From NCBI GenBank assembly GCA_039621445.1, contig CP154954.1, forward strand, positions 16,138,140 through 16,202,139: a DNA stretch of 64,000 nt. The letters are read 5' to 3'. Origin of the DNA: Euglena gracilis. Lineage: Eukaryota. Shown here one piece after another: positions 5,370 to 60,238 of the stretch (positions are counted from its first letter, which is position 1; each line of letters opens with the position of its first letter). The translations under genes were made by a program, and so were the position numbers. Under the pieces are notes generated by a model. It ran no database searches, was not told where the DNA came from, and saw nothing but the letters and a program-made list of their open reading frames with translations.

Positions 5370-5435
<66 letters not shown>

Positions 5436-9700: not shown

Positions 9701-12700
9701 TCCGTGATCCTCCATGAATTTCATTTAATTTCCTTTTCAGGAAATGGAAGGATCCCTGTGCTTTTACGCCGTTGAAAAACGATTCTCTTCGTTTCACATC
9801 ATCACCAAAAGGAAAAATTACTTTTCCAATTACAAATAAAGCACAGCACCAGAAAACTTAAAAAAAGCATGGGGGTAGGTCGGTGCGAAAAAGAATTAGC
9901 TTCCTCCAAAAAAAACTGGTGACTTAATTCTGAGGACATTTGGAGGAATTGTTTCTGATTGAAGCAAGCAATGCTTCTGCTTGAGCAGCGTTCAGTGGTG
10001 GTCCTGCCCACCCCGGCATGCCAACTGTAGGGTGCATGCTGGTCCACCTGCATGGAGGCAAAAAAGAACAGCGCACGAACGTAGAAGTTGAACATCACAA
10101 ACATTTTTCATAATTGCTGAAGAGTTGGGGAAAGCCTTCAGAACGGGTGGCTGATGTTTCTTTGGGTGAACATCTGGAAAAGAATTTTGATTTTCGCCGA
10201 AATTCTGGTGACACCACTTTTCAGAATACATTGTTCAGAGTTTCATCAGAGAATACATCGTCCATTCATTACAATACATTGTCCAGAATCAAATATTTCA
10301 TATCCGAAGAATTAAAGCAGACAACAAAACACCATTACTTTCCCCGTCCAGCCTCACCCCTGTGAATGGAACCCGAAAGAACAAATCCAGGAAAACCAAG
10401 CGCTGTCTCCATTCCACAAGGGGACAGTTGGTGCAGCAAAAGTATTGAAACCACCGCGGGTGCCATTCACACAAGGTGGGGAATTTCGGACCAGGAAACA
10501 GCATTTTGCAATCCAGCGAAGCAACCCTGCCATCTTCTCTCTCTGCCTGTGGTGTGAGTTGACCGAGTCAAAATTGGCCAAGGGGCCAAACGGTGCGACT
10601 GTGTGTGTGGTGACTGCAGGCGAGAGGGCTGCGAAGTGCCCGCTAGGCGGGAACCCCACACCAGTTAATCCTAACCAGGCCACTGAAGCCTGGGTTTGGC
10701 TGCGCAGGGCAGGCTCCAGACCGTATGGCAGGGAGGTGCTTGACCCGGGTTTGGGGGGGGGGGTGGTGTTGGGTGCCGGGCAATCCGGACTGGGCCAATG
10801 AACCTGGAGCAGGGGTTTTTTTAAGACCGGGGGGAGGGGGTCCCCCCCACCCACCCACCCCCTGGCCCCCCCCCGGGGGGGTTCCGGAGCCACTCAAAAA
10901 TCGGGGAAAATTCCAAAAATAGCACCTTTTCAAAAAATGTATGAATGCTTGCACCTTAATATCGAGCCTGATAATAAATTTGGCTGGAGGAACATCTAGT
11001 TGTCCAGATTTTCAGCAGTCATTTTTCTGCCTCGCGTTAATGTCCTGACATTTTCGGTTCGAACGAAAACAATGGATAAAAAAAAATTCCCCAAAACAGA
11101 AACCACCACTTCAGCACAGGGGAGAGAACAATGGGATAAAAAAAATTCCTGCAGACAGAAGCCACCACTTCAGCATGAGAGAGGGTGACAAACGAGTCAG
11201 TCGCTCAGAGATTTAAAAAAATCATCACATCGGTCAGCCACCTCCCTCACATGAAAATAACCAGTTGGGAAAATACACCCCAGGGTGGGTCACCTCGCAG
11301 ACAGCCTGAGGAAGCCTCAGCAAGCTGGAAAGCGTTGGGAGAGGATCTCACGCCATCCTTTCCTGCCCCTTGGTTCCACCTTTACCCAGCCTCCCCACTC
11401 CGGAAACTGTCCCCAGACAAATCAAGGCCGATGTACGAGGCAGGTCAGCAAATACGGAGAGGGGGGGTGGGGCTGGGTGACAGGGAAAAAAAGTCAAAAA
11501 AAATTCGACCGCCGGCAGACAGAAAATCCGACAACGCAATTTTTCGCAAGTTTGAGATAAGCTTGAAAGCAATGTTCAGAGTTTTTTTCAACTCAGGAAT
11601 CTGCTTCTTCAAGAAAAAAGTGAAAATTTTCAAACAATCGTTGGGAGACAAGGTGCGGGGAGAGAGGAGGAGGTGCCCCCAATGAAGACAGGTTGGCGAA
11701 TATGGAGGGAAGAGAACAGGCTCCCTGGGGGGGGGGGTTCCAACCTCAGAGTTTTTCAAAGGAACTACATTGAATTTTGACCTCGACATGTTGGCCAGTA
11801 CCTGGGGACCTGGCAGTTTCGCTGGTGGGCTGCTGACAGGTTCTTGGTCATGACAGCTTACTGAGAGGGGGGTGACGGCCAATTCTTCGACCCATTTCTG
11901 GAAACACCTTTCTGCAACCAAGCTCCAAAACTTTGGAAATTCTGCATGATGCCCTCCAACTTTACACCTTCCACCCAGAATGGGTTGGTAAAAAAACCTC
12001 ACGGACATTTTTTCTGCAAAACCGCCACTAACCAGAGCACCACCACCGCCACCCCCATTTCAGGTCTGGTTGCAAGGAAAGAGAGCGCTCAAAAGGCATG
12101 CCAGGTTGCCCACCAATCGCACTCTGTTCTCTGGGAGAGAAAACATATAACAGGGCCATGACAGGCATCATATGCACGTGAATGAGCCGCGCGTCGGAGA
12201 GGGGTTGAACATTGCACAGCAGCTCTCCACTGGACCAGGCATAAGCTACATCCCCACAGGGAAAAATTAGGGGGAAAGATGGGAAATAATTACAAGCTTC
12301 TTTTTACCAAACTCTGGGGGAGGGGATGCCTAGCAGGCTTCTGTTTACCAACTCTGGGGGAGGGGGGGGTTCGTCCTGTAATAAAAAAAAAGCGCTTACC
12401 TGTACCGGTGGGGGAGGTCAGGACCACCTAGCCAATTTTATTGCAGAACTACTTAACCCAGGCGCTGTCGGAGCAGCAGTATAATGTAGACATATCAAAA
12501 TACCTGACCTTGCTTGAGTTGGGATGGCGTCAACTTCTGCCTCAACGCTGGTGTGTCGGCGTCTATTTTCTGTTGCTGTGTTGTGTATTGCCTCTTCATT
12601 GACGAATGACCCTTCCAAGATTTTTGAAGGAAGCTTGCACCTTCCCCCAGGGAGCTGGGAGCCATGGCAGGGGGTGGGCGATTTTGACGATTTGGACCTT

Positions 12701-13283: not shown

Positions 13284-14733
13284 CTGTGCGGTTGTGGGGC
13301 AATAAGTTTTGTTTCCGTCTGCCGTTTCGCACCATGATCTTATCCGTCACTTCTCCCACGTTCTGTGGCAAAATTGGTTACCCAAGCCTCCTTGGAGCCT
13401 GCGCGGAGCCTGGTAACCTGAGCCTCTGCAGAGGCCATTCAAAAAAAAATCAACTTCAGAATCCCCAGACAATCTGTTGAAATGCAACAGATTTTTTGTG
13501 TAAATACCAGGAGAAAAAAGCTCCGAGGTATATGCAAAGCTCCGAGCAGATATGCAAAATAAGAAAAGTATGGAAAATATGTAATGCGGGGATTGCAAAT
13601 TCTTTTAGGACCTGGGGGGATCAGCACTTGGGGCGGGCCACAATTGCAGGGAGGGGATAACCGCAACATGGACCCTCAAAAAACGCGATGCAAATAAATG
13701 AAAAATAAACGTGAAAAAAAGGCAAAAAAAACGATAATTGCATGCAAAATCCTTTGCAGAGCTCCAGGAATACGGCTCTCCCCCTCCGAAATGCAATTTC
13801 TGCCTGAGGGGCTTAAATTTCAGCTCCGTCAGGGCAACTTTTTCATTTCGCATGAAGATATGCAATTTGTTGGCAAAAAATTGCAAAATTGGGAAAATTG
13901 GGGGCAAAATGAGGAATTTTTCATTGTCCAAAAAAATTCCAGCATAAACGAAAAAAAAGCAAAAAAAACACAAATTTTGCCAAACTCAAACAAAAAAATG
14001 CAAAAAAAAAACGCGTTCCCCCCCTGCACATTTGAAAACGAGGATTGGGTGGCCAATGTTGGGGTGCCTAACTTACATTCACTATTCTCGGGAGGTCATA
14101 TCCAAAAATAGGGTCAAATTCAAATGGCCCCGGGCAAGATTGCACTTTGAGGTCAGAGACGTATGGGGACGTCAAGTTTGCAAATGCAAATAACCACCTG
14201 TTTTTTTGCGACAACCTTAGATGAAGCATCCACTCTCCCCCCTGGGGTTCAACATTCGAAAATACCTGGATCCCACCCAAATAAAAAAATCAAGGGTGGA
14301 CATTGGGGGGGGGGTAACCCAAACCCGAACCAACACCCAAACATTAATCAGGGGGGGGGAAAATGCAACTGGGCCCTTCAAATTATGCAAGTCAAAAAAA
14401 TGCAAAAAAATGCAAAAAAAAATGCAAAAAATGCAAAAAAATGCAACTTGCAAAAAAACTGTTGAAAAAAGGCTGGAATACACCAGAATTTTGCTGCCTA
14501 AATCTGTAAACATGTGACAATGCCGGCGTGCCCGTCAATGATTCACAAAGAAGACCCCCAAGGAGACAACAACAAGCACTGAAGCTTTCAAAATCAACAT
14601 GATTTGTTTAATCTACGCAAATCGTCCCTCAAGGTCACCATTGAACATCAACAAAGCGGCGGCACGTCGCGTTTCATTACACAACGTGGAACGCAATTTG
14701 GTATCAACACACCCAGCAAGGCTGAACGAACGT

Positions 14734-14799
14734 GGCGGCACACCCTTCTGCATTCTATAGCACAACATTTGGATTCCGCACATGCAGAAGTGTGTGCTT
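14734..14799 (-). other. Nonconventional (non-GT-AG, hairpin-ended) intron, 66 nt
   Basis: Minus strand GA|AAGCACACACTTCTGCAT...ATGCAGAAGGGTGTGCCGCC|A. The ends base-pair (+4..+6 CAC with -8..-6 GTG). Removal restores the conserved hAT motif SADVERSFS. Confidence 0.82.
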
Positions 14800-16064
14800 T
14801 CAACGTCAGCAGAGGTGGTGGGAATGGTCAGTAAAAACTTGGCAACTTGGGCGAGGGCACCACTGTGCTTCGCCCAATACTGCATAAGCGAAACGGAATC
14901 TGAGGGGAACACTTGCTCCACGCGGCAATACCGCTGCCAATCCCCTTGAAATTCTGCATCATTCATAGGAAACGAAAGCATGGGGTATTGTGCAGGATCT
15001 TGGGACATGTCCGGAAGATTCCGAGGATTGAGAATTCGAATTTCTCGATAAAATTGCCATTGCTTTGGCCACCTGTCCATGACGGTGTCACAATACCTTG
15101 CCCCTCTTTTTGCAGCCAAATACAGAGTGGATCGCAGAGGTGTTCCATCTTTCAGGCTTCCTAGCAAAGCCTCCACTCGTGGCGAGAAAACGGCCCCTTC
15201 CCTTGCAAGCTTTGACAGCAAGCGACAATCATGTGCAGCACCGACTGTCCGCGGCTGTCCGTCGTCTCATCGAAGCTGACGGCCACGTCCTGGTTCGCCA
15301 GACGACGCCGCAACTCCGCAACGTGCCTCTGTGCGGGAAACAGTAATGATCATGAACTGAAAATTTATATCGGAAACCGAAACACAAACAATGCAACCAA
15401 CTTCCAATAAAGACAAGTCAAAGAGTACAAGGGGGAGAGGGCAACATAACACCTTGTAGACGCATTCCACCGAAGGCTTCATGTCCTTCTGGTCCTTGGG
15501 ATAACACCCTGAAAACTTCGTTGCCTTTCCAAAGAAACCCCTCAGGCTGGGGTGCGCGATCTTCTCCAAAGGTATGCCTACCAGAAAAAGGAGGCATTCC
15601 AGGACATTTACGAACATGGAGAGTATACCTGCTGCTAGGAATGCAGCACAAAGGTCATCGTGAACATCGTTGATTTCCGTTCTTGCTGTAAGCAACTTTT
15701 TCAAATCAGCTTGAACCTGTTAAAAAAAAAACAAATTATCTACCTGGAATGGAATGTGGAAAACGCACCTTTGCACGTTCAGGCACTTTTGGATTCAGAT
15801 TCTGTGTGGACGAGGCTTCATCTTGTACCTCCGCCGTTGGGGTGGCAATCTGAAAGTGAGGAAGCGGTCGTCAGACACAAAAAAAAATACATACCGGGGC
15901 TTTTGGTCTTGTTGCCTTCTTCTTTGCCAATTCAACATGGCCAGCTTGCTTCACGTGTTGATTTGCAACACTCTTCCGGCGGTGGTCAATGGGCTTCTGG
16001 CAAGCCACACACCACATTGACTCACCTCGGACTTCAAAAATACCAAATGGGAATTGCTTGCAAC

Positions 16065-16124
16065 AGCAGCATATTCTGGCTCCACCCAAATTTTCCACAC
16101 GTTTTTTGGAGCCGGAATATGTAC
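16065..16124 (-). other. Intermediate-type intron (GT start, non-AG hairpin end), 60 nt
   Basis: Minus strand C|GTACATATTCCGGCTCCA...TGGAGCCAGAATATGCTGCT|G. A 15-bp stem with one mismatch runs from +4 and -6. Removal gives TPSSRCKQF, which aligns with CGGBP1 TPLDRVTEF. Confidence 0.78.
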
Positions 16125-18935
16125 GGGAGCTTGGAGTTGACTTCGCTCCGTAATTGAACTTCCTCTTCTTTTGACGTGAATCTTCCTCTTCTTCTTCTTC
16201 TTCTTCTTCAGGGGGGACTTCACCCTCGTCCACCAAACCTCCTTCCAGAATTGCTTCCACTTGAGTGTCGGCCATGATGCAAGCTGAAATGACAAAAACA
16301 AGCTCGGAAAACATCCACTCCTCTGCAAAGCTGCCTTTTAATAGGGTGAAAGTATCAAAGACCCCAGGCAACTGCAGAGGGACCACGGACCATGGCGACC
16401 AACAACAAAAAAAAATTTTCCAGGACAAAATATTTTATGCAAAAAAATGCAAAAAAATGCAAAAAAATTCAAATTTCGGGAAAAGCCGATTATGCAAAAA
16501 AATGCAAATTATGCAAGTTGCATTTCCCCCCCCCTGCATTAATACCTATCTCCAACAACAACCCATAATAAGCAATAAATGTGCAAAATTGTGAATGTTT
16601 CAATCAGTTTTTTGGGAGGCAATCCGCCTGGAGGTGTACGTGGTCTCACCACATTCTGCACAAAGGGCCACTCACTTTGAAGCTCAGTAAGCCTGCCTCA
16701 CCACACTGTCTGCCCAACGTCGAAGACGCCTGGCCAATGTCACTGCTTTGGTGCTGTCATCGTCGGTCAAACATGAAGGCAGCACCTTGCAGGCCACAGG
16801 CAGCTGTAGCAGACACCAGGGGAGGGGGGTGGGAGAGGTTTGGTTTTGGGGTGCCGCCGAGGGCGAGGGGAAGATAATGTGGGGCCAGCCACGCCAACAA
16901 ACCGTCGTCCCAATTGCCCAGGCCAGGTGACTGGCATGGATTAGACACCTACCCCTTGGGAGGATGGGGTTTGGACTGACCCCCTGTAAACTTTCTGGGC
17001 CAATCTTTTTTGGCACCTTGGCAGTATCCAAAAAACATCCATGGATCTATTCAATGCGCTTTGGAAAAGTAATTTGGTGTCAAATGGCTTCTATTTCAGA
17101 GGACAACAAAAAATTACAGCATTTCGGGTTATTGGTGTCCATCAGACTTTTTGGAGGAAACATTTTGTCAAAAAAAAAAAGAAACTGACGTGAAAAGCCA
17201 GTAGGGAGAATCTGTCCTGTTTGGTGGGATCTCTGGGTATCCTGTAGGGTTTGATGCAGGTGATGGTGTCTGAGAAAGTTTGGGTCACTGGAACCCCCCC
17301 AAGACTGAGGTGCACTCAGGGTCAATACAGTCGGGCCGGAAATAGATTTTTGACAATTCATTTGGGGGGGGGGCGTCAATGTCCCCGAGGAGTTGCGGAG
17401 GTCCCCAGAAACAACCTCACATTGATTTTTCCATGGACACTATCAGCATCTGCCTGGTGGCGTGGACGACCGATCCACCTTCTCCTTTCCTCCAAAAAAA
17501 AAACTAATCTGCTGATTTTGCACAATTCTGATGAGCAACTTTGCGACGGACACAAAACCCAAGGTATCGCAAGGCCCTACTACTACCGATACTAAATGCC
17601 TGACCTTGCTGCGGTGTCCTGACGACCGTGTCGACACAGTGGTGCCCTGTTTTATGTTGGTGTGAAATAACAAGTGTGGCCCACACCGTCCATCGGATGG
17701 GGAGAGGCCAAAGGGAAGTAATCGCAGAAGGGAGCCAACATTGCTGCCCAGAATCCTCGGAAAGGGAAATTTCCCCTGCGGATTCGAGGAGTGGCTGGGG
17801 TTCTCAGCAAGACCGGCTGTCCTGGCACGGTGGACAGGCCACGCGTGGCACAGGGCGGGGCGCTAATGGGTCAAAAAAAAAGCCAATACTGCTGGGGGAG
17901 AGGCAAGAGAGACAGAACCACATGGGTTGGCACAGTGGCAGCACAGGGTTGGCTTGTCTCATATTCATATGCAAAATTTGCAATTTGCCACCCCAGTGCC
18001 TGTGCATTGCCTTTCAGGGTTTCTCCGGTTTCCGTGCTGGCCGAGGCCAAAATGTATCCGTGATTTTCCGTGATTTTCCGTCTATTTCCTATTTTATTTT
18101 TTAAAAAAAAAAAAAAACCATATTCCATATCAAATCATATCCCTCTGCCTCATCCGTGAATATCCGTGAATTTTTGTGATTTCTGTAAAAATGGCCTCGC
18201 GCCTTTTTTCCGTGATCCTCCATGAATTTCATTAATTTCCTTTTCAGGAAGTGGAAGGATCCCTATGCTTTTACGCCGTTGAAAAACGATTCTCTTCGTT
18301 TCACATCATCACCAAGAAGGAAAAATTACTTTTCCAATTACAAATAAATCACATCACCAGAAAACTTAAAAAAGCATGGGGGTAGGTCGGTGCGAAAAGA
18401 ATTAGCTCTCTCCAAAAAAACTGGTGACTTAATTCTGAGGACATTTGGAGGAATCGTTTCTGATTGAAGCGAGCAATGCTTCCGCTTGAGCAGTGTTCAG
18501 TGGTGGTCCTGCCCACCCCAGCATGCCAACTGTAGGTTGCATGCTGGTCCGCCTGCATGGAGGCAAAAAAGAACAGCGCACGAACGTAGAAATTGAACAT
18601 CACAAGTATTAGCAAAACATTTTTCATAATTGCTGAAGAGTTGGGGAAAGCCTTCAGAACGGGTGGCTGATGTTTCTTTGGGTGAACATCTGGAAAAGAA
18701 TTTTGATTTTCGCCGAAATTCTGGTGACACCACTTTTCAGAATACATTATTCAGAGTTTCATCAGAGAATGCATCGTCCATTCATTACAATACATCGTCC
18801 AGAATCAAATATTTCATATCTGAAGAATTAAAGCAGACAACAAAACACCATTCCTTTCCCCGTCCAGCCTCACCCCTGTGAATGGAACCCGAAAGAGCAA
18901 ATCCAGGAAAACCAAGCGCTGTCTCCAGTCCAGAC

Positions 18936-19246
18936 CAGGGCGGTCCTTAAGCAAATAAAAAAAAAACTCCGCTGTCCCAGCAGACTCAATAAAAATATAC
19001 AGGAAAATGGGCAAATAAATTTGGCATTATTCGGTGAGAACAGGTCGACACCAGGGAAAAAAACTGGTTCTTGGCATCCTTGGACCATCGCCCATCCACC
19101 CAAATCATCAAAAACTGTGTTTTTTGGACTTTTTAATTTTGGACCCCGTTCAAGTCCCAGTCCGGCCCTTGGTCGGCCCTTTGGCCGAAAGGGGGGCGGT
19201 CCTTAAGGAAAAAAAAATTTTTTTCTGTCCCTTAAAGACCGCCCTG
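18936..19246. mobile_element. hAT-type MITE, 8-bp TSD
   Basis: TIR CAGGGCGGTC(C/T)TTAAG; TSD GTCCAGAC at 18928-18935 and 19247-19254; single copy at the empty site 42842-42849. Confidence 0.92.
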
Positions 19247-19496
19247 GTCCAGACAAGGGGACAGTTGGTGCAGCAAAAGTATTGAAACCACCGCGGGTGC
19301 GGTGCCATTCACACAAGGGGGGGGGATTTCGGGCCAGGAAACAGCATTTTGCAATCCGGCGAAGCAACCCTGCCGTCTGCTCTCTGCTTGTGGTGTGAGT
19401 TGACCAATTCAAAATTGGCCAAAAGGGGCCAAACGGTGCGACTGTGTGTGTGGTGACTGCAGGCGAGAGGGCTGCGAAGTGCCCGCTAGGCAGGAA

Positions 19497-20865
19497 CAGA
19501 CATTCATTTAGTGTGGTTCACATAAGTCGTGTGAACCACAAATTTTTTTTGGTGTCCACAGGTGTACCACAAAAAAAATTTTGGTGTCCACAGGTGAACC
19601 ACAAAATATTTTTTGGTGTCCACATGTGAACCACAAAAAAAATTTGGTGTCCACAAAAATTTTTGTTGCGCCAGAACTTGATTGAGGATGGAAAAAAAAT
19701 TCAATTCTCATGTGTTGTGACAGTGCGAGTCCTGTATTGAATAGTTGGCATCGCAAGCACATTCCCTTTTTTTCAGCACCTGAAACCTTTGGATGCTGCC
19801 AAATTGATGGCAAACCGAACACCACATTCCAATGTTTGGATCATAATTCAACCAATCTCAGTTATTTTGACATGCGGGTCGAAACTTATGCCCATATTCT
19901 TTTCGATATGGGAAAAGAGGTTTTGTTTTTCTTTGGAGAAGGTCAGCCTCCAGATCCCTAGCTGAAATTCACCGTTTGAAAATTCACCAGGGCCGGACCC
20001 CCTCCACCCCCCCCTCTGCCGAACCCAACGGTGAACTTCACGGCGAACCCACCAGTGAAGTTCATCACAAGAATGGTCAAAAACTTAAGAATTCAACTTT
20101 CATTGAACTTTTGGGCTATTTTTGCTTTTGGATATCGCTACTGTCTCGCCGCCCTTCGGGCAGCAAAACATGGGAGGTTAGGCAGTACGGGGGGGCGGCT
20201 GTGGACTTCACCGGTGAATGGAGGTTCGGCACGTCTGACGAGGACCCTCGGCAACCAGGGGGGGGGTCCCATTTTGCCGTGCCGAGGGGGTCAGTCCCCC
20301 AGGGGGGGGGTCCACCGTGGCGGACAGCCGGAATTTCCCAAAGGATTCCATACCAAATTCATTGGTATGGTTCGGCATGCCGTGCCGAGGGGCTTGGCTG
20401 ACCAGGGGGGTCCCCATTTTTCCATGCCGAGGGGGTCCGACCACCAGGGGGGGGGGGGTGGCTGCCGAACTTCCAATGTTCACCAGGGGGGGGGGGTACT
20501 TTCGGCGGTGTAGTTCACCGGTGAAGTTCACCGATAAACTTCATTGTTTTTGATGGTGGGGGTGAATTTTTGATGGGTTAATTAATTGCTCCTTTTCCTC
20601 TCAAAATGGTGCGGACGCTGTTGGGCAAACATGTTCAAAGAAGATTGCTTCACCGCTGTTGAGGAGAAAGGTAACAATACAAATGTCAGCAGGCGGTGGG
20701 AAATTTTCTTGGTGTCCACATGTGAACCGCAAAAAATTTTTTGGTGTCCACAGGTGAACCACAAAAAAATTTTTGGTGTCCATACGTGAACCACAAAAAA
20801 AAATTTGGTGTCCACAATGAACCACAAAATGGCAACCTTGGTGTACCACACTAAATGAATGTCTG
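19497..20865. mobile_element. hAT-type non-autonomous element, 8-bp TSD, with subterminal repeat arrays
   Basis: 20-bp perfect TIR CAGACATTCATTTAGTGTGG; TSD GGCAGGAA at 19489-19496 and 20866-20873; empty site GGCGGGAA at 10646-10653; ~30-bp TTGGTGTCCACAxGTGAACCACAAAA repeats near both ends. Confidence 0.92.
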
Positions 20866-21031
20866 GGCAGGAACCCCACGCCAGTTAATCCTAACCAGGC
20901 CACTGAAGCCTGGGTTTGGCTGCGCAGGGCAGGCTCCAGACCGTAGGGCAGGGAGGTGCTTGACCCGGGTTTGGGGGGGAGGGGGTGGTGTTGGGTGCCG
21001 GGCAATCCGGACTGGGCCAATGAACCTGGAG

Positions 21032-21286
21032 CAGAGGTTTTTTTAAGACCGGGGGGAGGGGGGTCCCCCCCGCCCACCCACCCCCTGGCCCCCCCGGGGG
21101 GGGGGGGTCCGGAGCCACTCAAAAATTGCGGGAAATTCCAAAAATAGCACCTTTTCAAAAACTCTCGGCGCCTTCGGCACCGAAAAGTATATCCCACTCC
21201 CCCCTAGGGACCCGGGGGGGGGGGGGGGGTCAGCCGGACCCCCCCCCCCTCCCCCCCCCGGGGGGCCCCGACAAAAAAAACCCCTG
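21032..21286. mobile_element. hAT-type MITE, 8-bp TSD (truncated paralogue at ~10810-10935)
   Basis: Ends CAGAGGTTTTTT / AAAAAACCCCTG; TSD ACCTGGAG at 21024-21031 and 21287-21294; absent in the right arm (~42435-42455). Confidence 0.88.
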
Positions 21287-24185
21287 ACCTGGAGGCAGTT
21301 GGAAGTTCAGTGCCAAAATGTGCACATTTTCTGAGTGGTGCTGTAGCAAACCCGTCAGTGTGCCTAATGTGGTGCCCAGGAGCCTGATTCTCACAAACCA
21401 AGGGGTGGGGAGCGGAATTCTGGGTGCTGTCCAGGAAGGCACCCTCCCCCTCGGTTGCACCTTCTCCCTTGAACTTGACACGCCAAAATACGGGTGAAAT
21501 GCGGCCAATAAGGCGCCAGTGTATGAATGCTTGCGTAATAAATTTGGCTGGAGGAACATCTAGTTGTCCAGATTTTCAGCAGTCATTTTTCTGTCTCACG
21601 TTAATGTCCTGACATTTTCAGTTCGAACAAAAACAATGGATAAAAAAAAATTCCCCAAAACAGAAACCACCACTTCGGCACGGGGGAGAGAACAATGGGA
21701 TTAAAAAAAATTCCTGCAGACAGAAGCCACCACTTCAGCATGAGAGAGGGTGACGAACGAGTCAGTCGCTGAGAGATTTTTTAAAAAAGCATCGCATCGG
21801 TCAGCCACCTCCCTCACATGAAAATACCCAGTTGGCAAAATGCACTCCGGGGTGGGTCACCTCGCAGAAAGCCTGAGGAAGCCTCAGCAAGCTGGAAAGC
21901 GTTGGGAGAGGATCTCACGCCATCCTTTCCTGCCCCTTGGTTCCATCTTTACCCGCCTCCCCACTCCGGAAACTGTCCCCAGACAAATCAGCAAGCACCG
22001 ATGTAGGAGGCAGGTCAGCAAATACGGAGAGGGGGGGTGGGGCTGGGTGACAGCGAAAAAAGTCAAAAAATTCGACCGCCGGCAGACAGAAAATCCGACA
22101 ACACAATTTTTCGCAAGTTTGGGATAAGCTTGAAAGCAATGTTCGGAGTTCTTTTCAACTCAGGAATCTGCTTCTTCAAGAAAAAAAGTGAAAATTTTCA
22201 AACAATCGTTGGGAGACAAGGTGCGGGGAGAGAGGAGGACAGGTGCCCCCAATGAAGACAGGTTGGCGAATATGGAGGGAAGAGAACAGGCTCCCTGGGG
22301 GGAACAGGATTCCAACCTCAGAGTTTTTCAAAGGAACTTCATTGAATTTTAACCTCGACATGTTGGCCAGTACCTGGGGACCTGGCAGCTTCGCTGGTGG
22401 GCTGCTGACAGGTTCCCGGTCATGACAGCTTACTGAGAGGGGGGTGACGGCCAATTCTTCGACCCATTTCTGGAAACGTCTTTCTGCAACCAAGCTCCAA
22501 AACTTTGGAAATTCTGCATCATGCCCTTGCTCCAACTTTACACCTTCCACCCAGAATGGGTTGGAAAAGAAACCTCACGAACATTTTTTTCCAACCTCTG
22601 CAAACCGCCGCTAATCAGACCACCACCGCCACCCCCATTTCCAAGTCAGGTCTGGTTGCAAGGAAGGAGCGCTCAAAAGGCATGCTAGGTTGCCCACCAA
22701 TCGCACTCTGTTCTCTGGGAGAGAAAGCATATAACAGGGCCATGACAGGCATGCATGTGAATGAGCCGCGCGTCGGAGAGGGGTTGGACATTGCACAGCA
22801 GCTCTCCACTGGACCAGGCGTAAGCTACATCCCCACAGGGAAAAATTAGGGGGAAAGATGGGAAATAATTCCAAGCTTCTTTTTACCAAACTCTGGGGGA
22901 GGGGATGCCTAGCAGGCTTCAGTTTACCAACTCTGGGGGAGGGGGGGGGTTCGTCCTGTAATAAAAAAAAAGCGCTTACCTGTACCGGTGGTGCAAGCTT
23001 CCTTCAAAAATCTTGGAAGGGTCATTCGTCAGTGAAGAGGCAATACACAACACAGCAACAGAAAATAGACGCCGACACACCAGCGTTGAGGCAGAAGTTG
23101 ACGCCATCCCAACTCAAGCAAGGTCAGGTATTTTGATATGTCTACATTATACTGCTACTCCGACAGCGCCTGGGTTAAGTAGTTCTGCAATAAAATTGGC
23201 TAGGTGGTATGACCTCCAGGGGGCTGGGAGCCATGGCAGGAGGTGGGCGATTTTGACGGTGTCACAATTTGGACCTTACACTGGCATGGATTCTGTGTCT
23301 GTTGCAGGAGGATCAAAAGAGCTCATGCATAGTGTGTGGATGAAGAGCAAGAAAAAAAAAACTTTCTGTTTCATTGGCCTCACAATTACGGGATGCGATC
23401 AGAACAGTGACGGGTTTCTTCTTCCGCTAAAAGCCGGGTTGAACAGACTGACTATTCATTTGCAACTCAACCACTGCGGAAATGCGGCACGACTCACCTG
23501 GTGCCACGTCCAATTTTGACGGCAAACCATCCGGCACCCTTTGAAACCTGGCACGTGTACTCCACCACAATTCTGTCAACAGAAAATGCTCGAGATTTTG
23601 TTGTTAAAATCATTCTTTGGGGTTGTAACGAGCAGATTTTTTCCACACATCCTGAGTAATTGTCCCGTTATGCAAATTAAGCTGAGATGGTGCCAAATCG
23701 AACGCTCTTATTCTGTTGTGCCGGCAAAAGTTCTCTGATGCGATAAAATCCATGTTCCTTTGCGCAATTGCACAAAAGAACATAGCACAAACATTCCAAG
23801 AAGAATGTACAATTGTTAAACTAACACACTGAACCTTTTTTTTGTTTGGGCACTGCAAATTCTGTAATGATGTCGCAAAGCAGCCGGTCCCACCGTCGCG
23901 GTATGCGGACTACGCCTGCCTCTGCCAAAATGGGGAAGATCCTGGGCAGATGCGTCCAGGAGCACTTCGTGGAGGGCTATGAGGTGTTTGTGGCCAATGC
24001 CCAGATGACCCCTACTGAACTTAATCATCCAGATGCCCACACCCAGGTCCTGCTGATTACCAACAGCGCCTGCTTGGAGTACCTGCTGGTGGAGTTGTGA
24101 TGGCAGCTGCGACTCAACTGGACAGAGTTGCTGCTGCGGGATGCCTAGGTCCTGTACCGTACAGTGCGCCACCGCGACTGCCCTA

Positions 24186-25588
24186 CAGGTTGCCAACACA
24201 AAAAAACATACCCCCCCCCTGACAGCACAAAAAAACATACCCCCCATCTGGTGAGTAAAGCTATAAGCAGCAATGCGGCGAATCAAGCGCTGGATTTGCC
24301 GCGAATGCAACCGTCATGCAAAAGGGCGGGGTATGGGAAGGTCAGTAGTGGGTGTGTCCACCGCGAGCCGCAATGACAGCCCGCATGCGGTTAGGCATGC
24401 TGTCATAAAATGCTTTGACCTGTTCGGGGGAGATTTCTGCGAAGGCAGCTTGCAGAGCCGACCACAAATGGTCTTTGCCCGCAAACACATGCCCACGCAA
24501 CTTGTGCAGCACCATGGCGGAAACGCCTGGTGTTTGCACGCCAATATTCGACATATTCACAATCCATTGTGCAGGACTGCGGGCTACCGCTTCCAGCAGG
24601 ACGGGGCTTCTCCCCACCGTGCGCGGAGTACCACAGCGTGGATGAGGTGGAAGCGAGTGCTGCGCTTCAACGGAGGGGTTTGGCCACCACAGTCGCCAGA
24701 CCTTAACCCCATTCGGACTTACCGGGGAGCTGCTGCATGAGGCTGAACGGCGCGGCCATGTGGTTTGGGGGGGGGGCCGGTGGCGGAGGCTAGCCGGAGA
24801 ACCCTGTCAGGGGAAGAGCAGGGGTGGTTAGGCCTGAGATCTCTGGTCTCCAGGGAAACCACGGGCTGGCACCCCGTGCCCCCTTTTTGCTAGGGGAAAG
24901 AATTGTTACCAAACCCAAACTGTTCACCGAGGACAGTAATGGCTTCCTTGCTGCGGTTTGGCAGCACAAGCCCGCCTTCCGTAGAATTGTACGGATGAAT
25001 TCTGGAGATGGTTTTGGCGGTATCTGAAATTCACACAAAAAAAGCATATGCATAACGATTGACAAACACGCCTTAACCACTGCCCCTGCTGGACGGGCTA
25101 ACAATGCGGTGCTAACTCGGAGGAAATGCTCGTCGGCGATTTGTTTGCAACTCCAAAAAAGGGTTTTTCATTGCCACTTTTAATACACCTCTTCGAAACC
25201 TGTGGGAATTAAGGAATGGAATATAATTTATTGCAAACGTCGCACACCGTTCTGAATATTTCTTTGCCTTTTGCTGATTGGATCCCGATCCAACTTTGCG
25301 ATCAAGCGTGCCGCGTTCTTTGAATCTGGATGCCATACCTGGGATAAGTGGCTGGTGTGAATTGTGTACAAGCTGGGTATATACCTTGCACTGTAGCTTT
25401 GGATATTTTCTCATGATTTGCAATCTTATTGAGCGACCAGGGTGGAACAAAAGAGAGATACGTCTCCACGCGCTTGCTTAAAGCCGCTCTGTCGGCAGTG
25501 CTCATTTTTGGGGGCATGAGAGCAACTGGGGACAAAATGGAAAGGGGAATTTGCTTTTGGGGGGTATGTTTTTTGTGCTGGCAACCTG
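24186..25588 (-). mobile_element. Tc1/mariner-superfamily (Tc1-like) DNA transposon, defective
   Basis: TIRs CAGGTTGCCA(A/G)CACAAAAAA(A)CATACCCCC; TA on both sides (24184-85, 25589-90); the homologous site in the right arm has a single TA (39615-39616). Confidence 0.95.
24342..25517 (-). pseudogene. Tc1-like transposase remnant with spliceosomal introns and an internal inversion
   Basis: Minus-strand exons: MPPKMSTADRAAL...SLNKIANHEKISKATVQGMASRFKERGTLDRKVGSG (HTH), IRTILRKAGL...AARKPLLS, and C-terminal LWSALQAAFAEI...SMPNRMRAVIAARGGHTHY*. Introns 25339-25384 and 25200-25247 (GT-AG) and 25024-25071 (GC-AG). FQQDGASPH...WPPQSPDLNPI lies on the + strand (24575-24713). The first catalytic Asp region is absent. 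Confidence 0.9.
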
Positions 25589-28500: not shown

Positions 28501-28747
28501 AATCAGTGAGTACAGAGGGAGGTGAAAGGTCCCTATAAAGATAGGTCAAGGGTGCAGTGCTTGTCCGGGTAGCCAACACAAAAATCCGAAAATGTGGTTT
28601 TTCCACACATTTGCGATCAGCAGCCACAGAAATGCAAGCAATTTTTTTCGACTCGGGAAATGTGATTTTTCAACAAGAATGTGAAAAATCTCAAAAAATA
28701 TAGGTACAGGTCTGCCTGCCCCATCCCATAACCCCCCCCACTTATAC

Positions 28748-32248: not shown

Positions 32249-33246
32249 TAAGATGATGTGCGACTTTTTTTGCAAGTGACCAGAGCTTTGAACCTGGTGC
32301 ACCAGGAGGCTTTCGGACGCAAAAACACGATTCCAAATAATTGGTAAAAATGCTGATAATTGTGGGACCCCCCTACTCAAGGACCAGTGAAAAATACAGC
32401 ACTTAACAGGTACCCTCCCCCTCTTGTCCAAGACAAGCCAAGTGTTCAAGGAAAGTGCCCTTGACAGGGGGGGGGGTCTCAACAACCGCTGTTTCAACGG
32501 CACGATACCATGATAATGTTTTTCTCATTGCGGTTTGATCACCCAACAACCATGGCCTCCACAAGAGGAAGATGATTGCGCGGGCTGTCGGTCCTTGGAC
32601 TCAATCACGAGGCCGCTTGGACCACGTATTGAGGGCCATCGCTAGGGTCCCTGGGCGGTTGGGAAACGAGGAAGTGCCATTGGCACTTAATTCTGGCGGG
32701 GATACAAAAAAAGGCAGTTTCCTTGACATGAGGAGGTGCTGTGGTCCTCAATGTGTAACAGGGATGTGCAGTTCTGGCAGACAAAACCCAATTCATTGGG
32801 TGACAAAAATCCTATGAATCAGTAAATTAAAGGAACACAGATTGAAATGGTGATTCAGGAAATGAATCCATTCCTTCTTTTAACAATGCCTCCGTTACTC
32901 TGCAAGTAGTTTGAAAACCCTCCGGTATATGGCCCAAGGACCTTCAAAAGAGTACGGATTGTGCACCGTATGGTAGGCTGGCTTACTTCCGGGGGACACA
33001 GGGGGAGGCAGGCTGCGACCCATCTGAGGGGGATCAGGGGCAGGCAGACCCTCACTGCGACATCAGTTCCCCATCTTTCAGAGCATCTGCCTGGCCGCCA
33101 CGTACGTGATGCAACAGGGGTGCGTGGGAGAGGACCACGTCAGTTGCAGCTACAGCAATGCTGTGCTCTGCCCGAGATCCAATCCCATCCATACAGTTGC
33201 CTAGCAAATTGGTGCTTACGCCCAGTCATGCCACAGGTATTTGGTG

Positions 33247-33556
33247 CATGCTTGTGCTTACCGACCAGGGGGGGAGGGTGGGTGGGTGCTATAGAGTGCC
33301 TGCCCCTAGCAGGCACACCCCCCAGGGGGGGGTAGGGGTCCGGGGGGCCCAGAAAATCTTCATTGAAAATGGCCTTTCCCAGGCCCCCAGCGCCTTCGGC
33401 GCCGGGGTCAGAGGGGGGTTGCCTGCTATGGGCAGGCCCCCCCCAAAACCCTCCCCCCCCCTAGGGGGGGGGGGTCGGATCGGGTGCCATGGGGTGCCTG
33501 CCCCTAGCACCCACCCACTCCCCCGTGGGGTAGGCACCCGACTAAGCACAAGCCTG
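33247..33556. mobile_element. hAT-type MITE, 8-bp TSD (same family as 60239-60541)
   Basis: TIR CA(T/G)GCTTGTGCTTA; flanks ATTTGGTG / GTTTGGTG. Confidence 0.85.
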
Positions 33557-33820
33557 GTTTGGTGGGGTTCTCCCTGGGCAGGTACAAAGGGTAAACCACC
33601 AGATTTGGGACAAAAATCCAAAGGCCATGCCCCCAAAAAGAAACCAGACAAAGAGGCCAAGAGAAGGGATGAGGGTTCAAAAAAAAGGCAGTCAGGAGGG
33701 GAGGCAGGAATAAGCAACCTTGCATGTCCCCATGTCCGACCACATGAAGCAGGGATCGGGCGAGTGGAGCCGATGGGAACGCAGCGCAGTCAGCCTGGGT
33801 GCCCTCGGAGGGGGCCCATT

Positions 33821-33957
33821 CAGCGAATTTCTTGAGAACCCCCTCTGGCGGGGTCCAAACGGCTGGCTGGAAAAAAATGCTGGCTGGACCCCCTCATTAC
33901 TTTGTTTTTTACTTTATTACTACTCCCCCCCCCGGGGAGGGGGGTCGAGTGGTAACC

Positions 33958-33992
<35 letters not shown>

Positions 33993-34057
33993 CGGCCAGC
34001 TAAACCGGACGCCCCCCCCCCCGGGATAGGGTAGGGTCCAGCTTAAGAAATTCCCTG
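33821..34057. mobile_element. hAT-type MITE, 8-bp TSD
   Basis: Ends CAGCGAATTTCTTGAG / CTTAAGAAATTCCCTG; flanks GGCCCATT / CGCCCATT. Confidence 0.8.
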
Positions 34058-34882
34058 CGCCCATTGCGGCGGGCAGCAGTCCAGCACCCCAGGGTGTGTC
34101 GGCTCTGGGGAGGGGGGGAGGGAGCTGGCAGTCCTGTCCTCCGAAGGCAGCAAGGCTGCTAACCCCACCCAAGGCACAGAAATGTTCCAGGAATGTGCGT
34201 TGACACAGGGGGGGGGGGTTGTCAAGGGCACTTGTGTCAGACAAGGGGACGGTCCTTAGGGATGGGCCAGTCGAGAGCTCTTGGAATTTTCGGGAAAGGC
34301 TTTCACCACACCGATTCTGGGTTCCCTGGCACCGCGGTGAACTTGAAACAAAATCAAAGTCCATTTTGAGCAAGAATGGCTTTGGGGAGGGTGCAAGTGG
34401 TTCGGACGCTCTTGTCTGAACGGCGGCAAGAATGCTTTCATATTCTATGCTTTCCAGGGGAACGCGGTTCCTACCACAGAAATATTTCACAGGATTTTCT
34501 CTGTACAACAGGTTTTGCGACTCTTAAATTGTGAACTTGTGATACCCACCACACAATTTTTTACCGACCCCCGGGGGGTAGGGGGGTCACTCCACTTTTT
34601 TAAAAACCAGTCAGCCACTCTCTTTCGGAAAACCAGCCAGTCACTATCTATGACTGTCTATCTATGACTGCTGACTGTGTGCTGAATACTCTTGTCTGTG
34701 TGCTGCAGACCGTATGAACGTGCTCTGCTTCACACTCCCAGGGATGGGGTTTGAAAAAGCAGGGGGAGGGTCGGACCGTCCCTGCGTCAACAAGAGAGCC
34801 CGAAGCCACATTCTCTGTGTTTTTGAACTCCCCACTGGAGATCCAGGACAAATGTGCAATACCTACTGGCATCCCAACTCCA

Positions 34883-41690: not shown

Positions 41691-42883
41691 GAAGTCTTTT
41701 TGACTTTTTTTTTCCCTCTTACCCAGCCCCACCCCCCCCCCTCCGTATTTGCCGACCTGCCTCCTACATCGGTGCTTGCTGATTTGTCCGGGGACAGTTT
41801 CCGGGGTGGGGAGGCTGGGTGAAGGTGGAACCAAGGGGCAGGAAAGGATGGCGTGAGATCCTCCCAACGCTTTCCAGCTTGCTGAGGCTTGCTTCCTCAG
41901 GCTGTCTGCGAGCCCACCCACCCTGGGGTGTATTTTCTCAACTGGGTATTTTCACGTGAGGGAGGTGGCTGACCGAGTTTTTTTTTTAAATCCCTGAGCG
42001 ACTGACTCGTTTGTCACCCTCCCCCATGCTGAAGTGATGGCTTCTGTCTGCGGGAATTTTTTTATCCATTGTTTTGGTTTGAACTGAAACACGTCAGGAC
42101 ATTAACGTGGGCCAGAAAAATGACTGCTGAAAATTTGAACAACTGGATGCTCCCACAGCCAAATTTATTATCAGGCTCGACATTAAGGTGCAAGCCTTCA
42201 TTTACTGGCGTCTTATTGGCTGCATTTCACCCATATTTTGGCGTTCAAATTTCAAGGGGTAGAAGGTGCAACTGGGGGGGGGGTGCCTCCCTGGCAGCAC
42301 CCGGAATTCTGATCCTCACCCCAGGGTTGGTCAGAATCAAGCTCCTGGGCTCCACCTGAGGCACACTGAGGGGTTTGCTACAGCACCATTGTGCCTCAGA
42401 AATTGTGCATGTATTTGGCACTGAATTTCCAACTGCCTCCGGGTTCCGGGTTGGCCCAGTCGACTGAGTCTGGATTGCCCGGCACCCAACACCACCCCCT
42501 GCCCCCCAAACCCAGGTCAAGCACCCCCCTGCCCAACGGTCTGGAGCCTGCCCTGCGCAGCCAAACCCGGGCCTCAGTGGCCTGGTTAGGATTAACTGGC
42601 GTGGGGTTCCCGCCTAGCGGGCACTTCGCAGCCCTCTCGCCTGCAGTCACCACACACACAGTCGCACAGTTTGGCCCCTTGGCCAATTGTGACTCGGTCA
42701 ACTCACACCACAGGCAGAGAGAGAGGATGGCAGGGTTGCTTCTCCAGATTGCAAAATGCTGTCTCCTGGCCTGAAACCCCCCCCTTGTGGATGGCACGGC
42801 CGGTGGTTTTTTAACGCTTTTGCTGCACCAACTGTCCCCTTGTCTGGACTGTTGACAGTGTTTGGTTTTCCTGGATTTGCTCT

Positions 42884-54698: not shown

Positions 54699-55283
54699 GG
54701 GGAACCATTCAGGCTGTCTTTCTGTTGACACAGGGACTGGGGTACAACTTTGCAATGGTCAACAGAGAGTTTTTTTGGGAAAAGAAATGTTGGCAGTATC
54801 TTGGCAAATTAATTTTATGCCAACGATTTGAAGAGGGAACCAGCAGCACCGACCCAACAAGGTGGTGGAGGCAACTATCCCCTCAGACCAAAGCGTTGCC
54901 CCCCCCCCCCCGGGTGGCAACACTTGTTGGGGCCACAATGGATGGCCAAGTATGCACGGTAAGAATTTCGGGGCTGTGCACAAATTGGTGCATAATATTA
55001 TAATTTTGGGGCCAAGGTTGCAAGTTGTGGCTGCAGGCCAACTTTAACAAGGCCAAGTTAAAAAGGGGAAAAAAAGACAAGTGGTGTAACGGCCTGCAGT
55101 GCCACTGGCAGTGCCACCGCATTTCACCCCACACCTGCCTCCAGGGGACAGATGGGTTTTCAAGAACCAGGGGGTGGGGGCGGGGGAGGTGCACCATGGG
55201 CCAGTCTGTCCCGACCGAAGGCCAGACCGGAACTTTTTTGAAAGACTTCCAGCCGAATTTTTGTTTGGTGGGAGGGTGGACCC

Positions 55284-55989
55284 CAGGATTTGATACAAGG
55301 AGGGCGTACATAGTTTAGGTGCAGGGGTGTCCCCCCCCCCCTCCTGGCCCGCAGGGGGGTCCGGACCCCCCCCACCTGCCAGGGGGGTCTGGACCGACCC
55401 TGGGGGGGTACCCGGGACCCCCCCAAAAAGGGTCAATTTTTTTCCTCCGGCACTTTGCGCCGAAAATTTTTTGCATTTTTGGCAAATTTTTGCCCAAAAA
55501 GTGCCCAAAATGGCACTTTGGGTCGTTTTGGGGTATCAAAAATTTTCGGCCCGGCGCTTTGCGCCGGGCTGAAATTCGGTCACCTGGACCGCGCTACTGT
55601 TTAGGTGGGGGGTGTCCCCCCCCCCTCCTGGTCCGCGGGGGGGGGGTCCGGACCAGACAATTGCTTAAGCACTAAGCACTGACCGACCCCCCCCCGGGGG
55701 GGTGGGTGACTGGTTTTTTCAGAGTGACTGACTGGTTTTTGGCCCGGACCCCTCCCCCCCGGGGGGGGGTCGGCCAGGAGTGGGCAAAAGTGGCTTGAGT
55801 GACCCCGAGGCGCCAAAGGCGCCGGAAAATTTTTTTGGGCCTAAAATGACCTAAAGTGACTGGAAAGTGGCCGTTTTTCTGAGTGGCCGACCCCCCCCCC
55901 CGGGGGGTGGAGTGCCCCCCCCCCTCCCCGGGGGTTGGTGAGCAATTGTATGGTCCGGACCCCCCCACCTGTCCTTATATCAAACCCTG
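55284..55989. mobile_element. hAT-type MITE, 8-bp TSD, composite interior
   Basis: Ends CAGGATTTGATACAAGGA / TCCTTATATCAAACCCTG; perfect TSD GTGGACCC at 55276-55283 and 55990-55997. Confidence 0.85.
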
Positions 55990-59405: not shown

Positions 59406-60238
59406 TATGAACCACACATTTAAGGTGTCCACGTATGGTCTACATCGCTCAGCTTGGGGGGGATGCACCATCGCTCAGCTTGGGGGGGATGCACCCCTCC
59501 TTGGTCATTGATATCATGTTTGGCAGATGTCGATCGGTTTCAATGGCAGTCAATGGCAGTCAATTAGTTTCAATGCCCTGTAGCAGGTGTACGTACAGAA
59601 TGCACATAGTTACCAAAGGCGTTTTTTTAAAAAAAAATTGGTGCCCGGTGCTGGAAGGGGGTTTTTTTTTCTCCTGTTTTTGGGACAAAGCCCGAATTTT
59701 CGACCCATCATCGAAAATCAACTCACAGAAGAGGTCGCCGAAGGGGAAGCCCTCCCGCCCCCCAGGCCCAGGGGTTATACCCCCCCCCCCCAGGAGGAGA
59801 ACTGAAAGCCACCGGGGACAATTTTTTCGGCTGCAAACCACCCAAAAACTGATTTTTTATCATTGTCTTGAGACCTACCATTATCAAAAATGTCATTTTG
59901 ACCAAATTTGCCGAAAATTTCGTTGTTGGCGTTTTGTCTGTTTGTCTTTTTTTTTTGCTGCGGCTGCCTCCACCAAAGCCAAAAGCGGGTTCTCGCCGTC
60001 CTCTCCAAACCCCAATGCATATATATCAAGGAAGTTTATTACTATTTCAAACCGAGCCTGCTTTGGTGGGAGCGGTCGGGGAGAGCGGCCTGCTCGCTTC
60101 TGATTTGGGGCATTCTTTGGTTTCCAGTTTAACCAGCACCTTTTTTATTGACCCCCGGGTCCCTCAGCAATCCTCTGACTCATTTCATTTAGGCTTTTGA
60201 TGGGTTACACAACTCAAAGCATATCAGCAGGACAGAAC

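Follow-up and report, generated by a model that had tools for sequence, protein, structure and literature searches.

Transposable elements with CAG...CTG ends and 8-bp target-site duplications as candidate sources of nonconventional introns in Euglena gracilis

Results

Elements with CAG...CTG ends and 8-bp duplications

Within a 64,000-nt stretch of Euglena gracilis DNA (hereafter the window), the initial annotation had described several unrelated MITE families that begin with CAG or CAT, end with CTG or ATG, and carry 8-bp target-site duplications (TSDs). We checked eight listed sets of coordinates for their ends and flanking repeats. A ninth element, absent from the earlier list, is nested within the element at 55284. 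The nine elements are:

18936-19246 (18928..19254 with TSD copies): MITE, 311 bp, ends CAGGGCGGTC...GACCGCCCTG, CAG...CTG; TSD GTCCAGAC, 8/8
19497-20865 (19489..20873 with TSD copies): non-autonomous element, 1369 bp, CAG...CTG; TSD GGCAGGAA, 8/8
21032-21286 (21024..21294 with TSD copies): MITE, 255 bp, CAG...CTG, rich in G/C runs; TSD ACCTGGAG, 8/8
33247-33556 (33239..33564 with TSD copies): MITE, 310 bp, CAT...CTG; TSD ATTTGGTG / GTTTGGTG, 7/8
33821-34057 (33813..34065 with TSD copies): MITE, 237 bp, CAG...CTG; TSD GGCCCATT / CGCCCATT, 7/8
55284-55989 (55276..55997 with TSD copies): element, 706 bp, CAG...CTG; TSD GTGGACCC, 8/8
55654-55952: MITE, 299 bp, nested within 55284-55989, CAG...ATG; TSD GTCCGGAC, 8/8
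60239-60541 (60231..60549 with TSD copies): MITE, 303 bp, CAG...ATG; TSD GACAGAAC, 8/8
63708..64000: partial element cut by the window end, TSD beyond the window; inverted copy of the 18936 family, 82% identical

The described ends were recovered, and the eight complete elements showed exact 8-bp TSDs in six cases (five of them previously listed) and 7/8 matches in the other two. The families were not all unrelated: 18936 and 63708 belong to a single family, in opposite orientations and with a common inverted repeat at the start, as do 33247 and 60239, which are mutually inverted and each have one end in common with 55654. CAT or ATG termini were found in 3/8 complete elements (33247, 55654, and 60239). 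In six elements the terminal 12 bases were complementary at 11-12 positions, and perfect inverted-repeat runs reached 10 and 21 bp in two elements, with the 21-bp repeat of 19497-20865 (CAGACATTCATTTAGTGTGGT) accompanied by subterminal repeats of ~32 nt. An unbiased scan of the window for any 8-bp direct repeat around an inverted repeat matching at least 11/12 returned seven matches, six of which start with CAG, the remaining one being a G/C-run palindrome; the same scan on 30 shuffled sequences returned none. The window is repeat-rich nuclear DNA holding ~6 non-autonomous cut-and-paste families of the 8-bp-TSD, CAG...CTG type.

Clean empty sites had been reported in the window for 18936 and 19497. 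Both are present with a single target copy, and 21032 adds a third:

42836..42851, minus strand: empty site for 18936, single GTCCAGAC
10642..10657, plus strand: empty site for 19497, single GGCGGGAA
42603-42618, minus strand: second empty site for 19497
42429..42447, minus strand: empty site for 21032, single ACCCGGAG, not in the initial annotation

At a second paralogous copy of the 18936 site (10409-10423) the target is 2 nt shorter, and the 21032 paralog at 10802 retains the 5' part of the MITE. Several copies were inserted later than the local segmental duplications, and the elements, their TSDs, and their mobility are directly visible in the window, as are the predicted stems described below.

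Relationship to known transposon superfamilies

Comparison of 20 long open reading frames (ORFs) of the window with Pfam identified, as protein domains, a hAT remnant alone, which lies inside a larger CAG...CTG element. Another element with these ends is of the Tc1/IS630 type:

14349..16536, minus strand: 2.2-kb CAG...CTG element, 14-bp perfect inverted repeat, 7-bp flanking direct repeat CATTAAT
8032-8047: empty paralogous site of the 14349-16536 element
14613-15266, minus strand: hAT transposase remnant ORF, inside the 14349-16536 element
24186..25587: Tc1/IS630-like element, ~30-bp inverted repeat, ends CAGGTTGCC...GGCAACCTG, TA (2-bp) duplication
39609-39622: empty site of the 24186-25587 element, showing the TA duplication

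The remnant ORF scored 19.2 bits against PF05699, below the 21.4 cutoff, and in the ESM Atlas the hAT dimerisation family accounted for 22/30 of its feature matches (best score 0.95). Six relatives were found among 5.8 billion proteins, two of them named: the Euglena gracilis transcript EG_transcript_17274 (47% identity) and a Eutreptiella gymnastica transcript (42%). These two relatives point to a probable euglenid host. One relative, P0002, scored 28 bits for the hAT domain. The element at 24186-25587, which carries an internal inversion, belongs to Tc1/mariner-IS630, given its TA duplication and DDE_3-type transposase: two relatives with PF13358 (DDE_3-type), P0008 and P0009, match 24345-24716. 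With its combination of CAG...CTG and a 2-bp TSD, this element shows that CAG ends also occur outside hAT.

hAT elements have the terminal motif YARNG, and those of the Ac type the target consensus nTnnnnAn. YARNG fit 9/17 visible ends (manual count), and the TSD columns showed T at position 2 in 4/8 and A at position 7 in 5/8. P elements start with CATG and have 8-bp TSDs, and CATG occurs at one end of one family here. These elements could generate introns as proposed and yet come from an 8-bp-TSD superfamily other than hAT (P-like or Merlin-like), an assignment we regard as quite improbable. It would account for the fact that CAGGG is all the MITEs have in common with the inverted repeat of the 14349-16536 element, the only hAT-domain carrier in the window, whose flanking repeat is 7 bp rather than 8, and Merlin families with 8-bp TSDs have been reported in E. 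gracilis (PMC8101967). However, the sole transposase remnant in a CAG...CTG element with a 7-/8-bp flanking repeat is hAT-like and has euglenid relatives, and the TSD columns lean towards the Ac-type target. Merlin membership was itself considered and rejected: the TSD length of that superfamily (8-9 bp) fits, but its termini are a conserved 5'-GG (PMC8101967), while all termini here are CA(G/T) and none is GG.

hAT MITEs are defined by inverted repeats of 10-25 bp and TSDs of 8 bp (PMC3942097). Like these, the elements described here are non-autonomous, have short inverted repeats, and carry 8-bp TSDs, and a remnant of a hAT dimerisation domain lies close by; they differ in that the hAT-domain element has the 7-bp repeat and that no autonomous partner combining a hAT transposase with MITE-matching inverted repeats was found in the window. 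The superfamily of the 8-bp-TSD CAG...CTG elements is most likely hAT.

Fit to the nonconventional intron code

The published splicing code of euglenid nonconventional introns consists of a 3-nt spacer, CAG, CTG, and a 5-nt spacer, with a downstream exon beginning with a purine (PMC12501133). CAG at +4..+6 pairs with CTG at -8..-6 in a terminal stem (PMC3935182, PMC4770533, PMC11282704, PMC12501133), so the rules quoted in the initial annotation are found in print, and its proposal that excision of 3 nt, the element, and 5 nt removes one TSD copy agrees with this code (3 + 5 = 8; PMC12501133). Synthetic 50-bp introns bearing just the code features undergo splicing, and one substituted base in either CAG or CTG is enough to abolish it (PMC12501133).

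For each element, we took 3 nt + element + 5 nt as the candidate intron and computed the minimum-energy fold of both strands. CAG:CUG was fully paired on both strands in 5/8 complete elements, and in the other three, which have CAT or ATG, just 2/3 pairs formed. TSD position 6 was a purine in 7/8 and position 3 a pyrimidine in 7/8, and the purine rule therefore holds on either strand. The earlier claim that either strand can be restored, with the inverted repeat supplying the stem, was supported by the pairing in five elements and by the purine rule (7/8 per strand), and weakened by the CAT/ATG ends of the other three.

Further positions can be compared with published introns. TSD position 8 was C in 4/8, in agreement with the C that published introns have as third base of the exon downstream (PMC4770533); the fourth terminal base was G at 11/17 visible ends (manual count), compared with G/C at +7/-9 in 31/55 published introns (PMC4770533). 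TSD position 5 disagreed: it was a purine in 7/8, whereas 49/55 published introns carry a pyrimidine at the 3' ends of exon and intron (PMC4770533). Published introns also show an identical pyrimidine-purine pattern at the two junctions (PMC4770533), as they should if the two correspond to a single TSD position, and a recently gained nonconventional intron of Euglena agilis is flanked by 8-nt junction repeats, which the 2016 authors ascribe to double-strand-break repair (PMC4770533). What is known of the splicing code and of 8-nt repeats at a young intron comes from these papers, not from the window. The arithmetic 3 + 5 = 8 matches a single free number.

RNA and DNA reads

The initial annotation had suggested mapping RNA-seq junctions. 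Three RNA runs, drawn from two studies, contained a joint from 19488 to 20866 that skipped 1377 nt, i.e., the 1369 nt of element 19497 plus the 8 nt of one TSD (34, 23, and 21 reads; 30, 19, and 15 distinct starts). This joint matches a precise loss, but the joined form was also present in DNA run X1 (one contig, depth 137), and two empty 19497 paralogs are 96-98.6% identical across 75 nt per flank, so that splicing is not required to explain it. Where the TSD is perfect, the joint position slides across nine positions, and RNA-seq junctions therefore cannot fix the 3/5 register. RNA depth was low over the window, and 74-81% of placed reads ran on into unlike sequence, indicating that most RNA reads stem from other repeat copies. 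Among the joints listed, there was none for 18936, 21032, 14349, 24186, 33247, or 33821, and no back-joint that would be a sign of circular RNA. No gene containing an element copy was found in the window (20 long ORFs, Pfam), nor any marker gene, spliced leader, or Rfam match.

The reads skipping 19497 might nonetheless reflect genuine splicing at this locus, with the element removed as a nonconventional intron. The joint skips exactly the element and 8 nt in all three RNA runs, depth within the element is only 0.2-1.6, and both strands of the element conform to every part of the code, with a stem of 21 bp. We consider this reading doubtful, however, in view of the joined form in DNA and the near-identical empty paralogs. 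RNA depth in neighboring bins is moreover near zero (e.g., 0-0.28 at 18202-18868), which fits reads from copies that are alike just near the 19497 site.

Discussion

A MITE origin of nonconventional introns, which the initial annotation had noted as an earlier general proposal, has been suggested in print since 2014, at a time when transposons were not known in euglenids and without a named transposon (Milanowski et al. 2014, PMC3935182). A 2024 review likewise calls the intron ends inverted-repeat-like and the junction repeats TSD-like (PMC11282704). The excerpts of PMC3935182, PMC4770533, PMC11282704, and PMC12501133 name neither a transposon family or superfamily nor the equality of 3 + 5 with TSD length, and we found no published link of these introns to hAT or to 3 + 5 = 8. 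As a hypothesis, the MITE-intron idea is sound, has been anticipated in part, and can be tested, but this window does not demonstrate it.

The proposed route would begin with the insertion of an 8-bp-TSD CAG...CTG element into a transcribed exon. With the 3 nt that precede it and the 5 nt that follow it, the element would reproduce the intron cis-code, i.e., the spacers, the CAG:CTG stem base, and the following purine; because it matches this code, an exonic insertion is predicted to be excised as element + 8 nt. Such excision would restore the pre-insertion RNA in either orientation, and the 3/5 asymmetry would represent the split of the 8-bp TSD. Euglenid nonconventional introns share with the elements described here the paired CAG/CTG, terminal stem, downstream purine, and junction direct repeats, but they sit in genes, whereas the elements appear here as mobile DNA, marked by TSDs and empty sites.

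Removal of inserted transposons from RNA has precedents. Maize Ds, a hAT element, reportedly acts as a de novo intron and is removed by splicing (Giroux et al. 1994). As in the present proposal, a hAT-type exon insertion is removed from RNA, but splicing of Ds is spliceosomal and imprecise, uses sites in or near Ds, and has a geometry not tied to the TSD. Introner elements are said to have been treated by Huff et al. in 2016. These elements, found in Micromonas and other algae, are likewise short inverted-repeat transposons, and their insertion gives rise to an intron; the TSD contributes to the excised sequence or to the junction, and the mRNA is restored. They differ in being removed by the spliceosome, with one splice site carried and the other co-opted from a 3-nt TSD (PMC11282704). 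The system proposed here would instead be non-spliceosomal, with fixed distances from the stem and an 8-bp TSD.

The resemblance could be coincidental. CAG is a common DDE terminus and 8 bp is the hAT stagger, so that these may be ordinary intergenic MITEs, with introns arising otherwise, e.g., through break repair, and the 3/5 geometry set by the RNA enzyme alone. The Tc1-like element, likewise CAG...CTG but with a TA duplication, is in line with this explanation, as are the lack of any gene found in the window, the TSD position 5 mismatch, an RNA joint at 19497 for which empty paralogs, or an allele without the element, offer an explanation, and the attribution of 8-nt repeats to break repair in the 2016 paper (PMC4770533). 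We nevertheless judge coincidence unlikely, since independent features concur: 3 + 5 = 8, the position 6 purine, the position 8 C, CAGG/CCTG ends, a consensus identical between the two junctions, and the young-intron 8-nt repeat. In addition, synthetic code-only sequences are spliced (PMC12501133), and an exonic insertion of this kind would therefore be expected to serve as a substrate.

The initial description of these elements as candidate intron generators is partly supported by their TSDs and ends, the published code, and the E. agilis 8-nt repeats, and is tempered by the 3/8 elements with CAT/ATG and by the occurrence in DNA of the only RNA joint, that of 19497. On balance, we lean slightly towards 8-bp-TSD CAG...CTG elements being the best candidate source of nonconventional introns, and we infer that these copies or their relatives may be spliced and that introns may descend from such elements. 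The 2025 genome-wide study left "slidable" introns, 84.4% of all introns, out of its motif analysis (PMC12501133), and these are exactly the set where intact TSDs would sit.

The questions addressed here are the origin of euglenid nonconventional introns and the reason for an asymmetric 3 nt / 5 nt cut around the CAG:CTG stem. If the transposon origin is true, the class from which these introns come could be named, namely families that moved recently, match the introns at their ends, and leave an 8-bp TSD. The 3/5 asymmetry, the consensus identical between the two junctions, and the preference for a purine and a C in the exon would then all be target-site relics. More broadly, and more tentatively than the source assignment itself, euglenid nonconventional splicing may be an RNA-level precise excision set to an 8-bp hAT-like stagger, which cuts 3 nt ahead of an inverted-repeat stem and 5 nt beyond it and erases the insertion with its TSD in either orientation. 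The nonconventional introns of Euglena, reported to number several hundred thousand, might then be fossil insertions of such families, some of which are perhaps still generating introns.

Elements, target-site duplications and mobility

Within 18928-21294, the three MITEs described in the initial annotation are exactly where it had placed them, with their ends and paired copies of the 8-bp target-site duplication (TSD) present. Its five other element starts fared unevenly: the 8-bp duplication is exact at 55284 and 60239, the two TSD copies agree at only 7 of 8 bases at 33247 and 33821, and 63708 marks a copy cut short by the window end.

Elements with CA(G/T) ends, comparison elements and empty sites in the window
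14349-16536: 2.2-kb CAG...CTG element, 7-bp flanking repeat, found by paralog comparison
18936-19246: element starting CAGGGCGGTC and finishing GACCGCCCTG, flanked on both sides by GTCCAGAC
19497-20865: element with a perfect 21-bp inverted repeat, flanked on both sides by GGCAGGAA
21032-21286: element flanked on both sides by ACCTGGAG
24186-25587: 1.4-kb Tc1/IS630-like CAG...CTG element, flanked by a TA duplication, found by paralog comparison
33247-33556 and 33821-34057: elements with TSD copies agreeing at 7 of 8 bases
55284-55989 and 60239-60541: elements with exact 8-bp duplications
63708: member of the 18936 family, inverted, truncated by the window end
42836-42851: empty site for 18936, single target copy
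10642-10657 and 42603-42618: empty sites for 19497, single target copy each
42429-42447: empty site for 21032, single target copy

An unbiased scan of the window for any 8-bp direct repeat bracketing an 11-of-12 inverted repeat returned seven cases, six of which start with CAG, the remaining one being a palindrome of G/C runs; the same scan of thirty shuffles returned none. It also yielded an element beyond those initially annotated, 55654-55952, nested within 55284.

In a self-comparison, approximately 62% of the window aligns elsewhere within it. Two arms (~249-31627 and 53700-36511) form a large inverted duplication with 74-91% identity, and tandem copies of a ~5-7 kb unit are up to 97% identical (8039-13224 vs 16538-23801; 42884-46099 vs 46692-49912). 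The clean empty sites initially reported for 18936 and 19497 are confirmed by these window paralogs, each with one target copy, and the 5' part of the 21032 element is still present in the 10.8-kb paralog. The insertions thus took place at differing times relative to the duplications. Taken together, these elements are almost certainly real, recently mobile transposons with 8-bp TSDs.

Several other features accompany these repeats. In the 10.4-kb paralog (10409-10423), the target of 18936 is TTCCAC, 2 nt shorter than GTCCAGAC; either simple sequence divergence or the scar of an old excision could account for this. Inside 19497, a 450-bp segment (19992-20441) with an 11-of-12 inverted repeat (GCCGGACCCCCT / AGGGGGTCCGAC) and a 7-bp direct repeat, CACCAGG, at its flanks may be a nested insertion from another family without CAG ends. 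Long CAG/CAA-type trinucleotide tracts, open in all six frames, recur among the paralogous units (5072-6593, 45838-46243, 49600-50126). Finally, 74 metagenome loci matching a 17-nt inverted-repeat pattern were dismissed as chance, since their resemblance to the MITE or the window is confined to that pattern.

Superfamily assignment

The 2.2-kb element at 14349-16536 contains an ORF on the minus strand (14613-15266) resembling a hAT transposase remnant. Its match to the hAT dimerisation domain (19.2 bits) is slightly below the Pfam cutoff of 21.4, while its relative P0002 exceeds the cutoff at 28 bits, and among ESM Atlas features the hAT dimerisation family accounted for 22 of 30 matches, with a best score of 0.95. 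Only six relatives of this ORF were found among 5.8 billion proteins, and a search for longer relatives gave none at E ≤ 0.001. Two of the six are named, namely a Eutreptiella gymnastica transcript and EG_transcript_17274, whose name follows the scheme of the Euglena gracilis transcriptome (PMC6366073). This ORF, the one line of evidence on the host, makes a euglenid likely but is not a marker gene. Across 20 long window ORFs, Pfam returned this weak hAT match alone, plus chance matches under the cutoff. The four ORFs of the Tc1-like element matched no Pfam family, Rfam gave no match across the window, and a 318-aa ORF at 62635-63591 was rejected as a gene, its translation being low-complexity sequence.

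On this basis the MITEs probably belong to the hAT superfamily, although some families may be P-like instead. Merlin elements also produce 8-bp duplications in E. gracilis, but their GG termini (PMC8101967) are unlike the CA(G/T) ends seen here, which rules out this identity. A subterminal TTAAG or TTAG-like motif lies ~11-16 nt from the CAG terminus in most of the otherwise unlike families examined (18936, 21032, 33821, 55284, 55654, 33247, and 60239; e.g., CAGGGCGGTCCTTAAG, CAGAGGTTTTTTTAAG, and CAGGGAATTTCTTAAG), and hints that a single transposase family may recognise all these elements.

Element geometry and the nonconventional splicing code

The intron rules quoted in the initial annotation are in print: nonconventional introns carry CAG after a 3-nt spacer of strict length and CTG ahead of a 5-nt spacer, the first base of the downstream exon is a purine, and one-base substitutions in CAG or CTG abolish splicing, while fully synthetic 50-bp sequences with these features and a 12-bp stem alone are spliced (PMC12501133). 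Given these CAG/CTG and spacer rules, any element that has an 8-bp TSD and CAG...CTG ends fits the code automatically. The proposed arithmetic is also sound, as removal of 3 nt, the element, and 5 nt leaves a single target copy. In minimum-energy folds, CAG and CTG are paired on both strands in five of the eight complete elements. A purine occupies TSD position 6 in 7/8 elements and, on the complementary strand, position 3 in 7/8 as well.

Three features of published introns can be read in the same terms. The pyrimidine/purine pattern is alike at both intron junctions (PMC4770533), which under a TSD model would be one TSD position seen twice. The extended intron consensus is CAG(G)/(C)CTG (PMC4770533), and the fourth base is G at 11 of the 17 visible ends in the window (counted from printed ends). 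Eight-nucleotide junction repeats occur at an intron lately gained in one strain of E. agilis; they are longer than those of the study's other introns, and the authors attributed them to break repair (PMC4770533). The TSD model explains all three features. The agreement is not complete, however: 7/8 elements have a purine at TSD position 5, whereas 49 of 55 published introns carry pyrimidines at the exon and intron 3' ends. The C reported for base 3 of the downstream exon (PMC4770533) has a counterpart at TSD position 8 in 4/8 elements.

RNA evidence

Reads from three raw-read RNA runs with the same species label and one DNA run were placed on 14200-34199, which includes seven elements. RNA depth was 0-11 per bin, and since 74-81% of placed RNA reads continue into unlike sequence, most derive from other repeat copies. 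Among the joints listed, only 19488->20866 was supported by RNA (34, 23, and 21 reads, run by run), and none of those listed with RNA support lay at the other six elements. This joint skips 1377 nt, i.e., element 19497 plus one TSD, with a depth of 0.2-1.6 within the element. Molecules that contain the element are all but missing from RNA, so retention, which was to count against the proposal, was not seen. Transcripts of empty paralogs would nevertheless map here, since in the 75 nt to either side both are 96-98.6% identical to this locus, and the bins neighbouring 19497 have almost no RNA, which fits reads from copies alike only near the site. The joined form is also present in the DNA run, as one contig of depth 137, and together with the near-identical empty paralogs this keeps us from calling the joint splicing. 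The joint can also slide over nine positions, so that RNA-seq, initially suggested as the check, cannot reveal the 3/5 register across a perfect TSD.

Other RNA signals were associated with the repeats themselves. G and C homopolymer runs within MITEs draw many RNA reads that match only in part, giving loose ends of 10-84 reads, themselves G or C runs, at 21089-21269 and 26853; this inflates apparent bin depth. In the strand-specific run (X24), first mates fall nearly all on the plus strand throughout 14200-34199, indicating that transcription from these repeats is one-directional. The Tc1-like copy has an internal inversion: plus-strand matches to its relatives lie at 24588-24716 and minus-strand ones at 24515-24345. 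Its inversion breakpoint coincides with 24713, where 31 and 17 RNA reads precisely leave the window sequence, and the read consensus upstream is absent from the window; intact Tc1-like copies elsewhere therefore appear to be transcribed.

Relation to the MITE hypothesis

A general MITE origin of nonconventional introns had indeed been proposed before (PMC3935182, PMC6221363, PMC12501133, PMC12621601), and a 2024 review terms CAG/CTG inverted repeats and the junction repeats TSD-like (PMC11282704). Within the full text searched, these introns are linked neither to hAT nor to an 8-bp stagger behind the 3+5 spacers, and no actual mobile families with these ends are described for them. Six inverted-repeat strings were likewise absent from the full-text literature searched. 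The present proposal gives the MITE hypothesis a specific mechanism that can be tested and supplies it with real candidate elements, the splicing of whose copies is putative. Whether nonconventional introns stem mainly from elements of this class, their 3/5 cut being a reflection of the TSD, we regard as evenly balanced.
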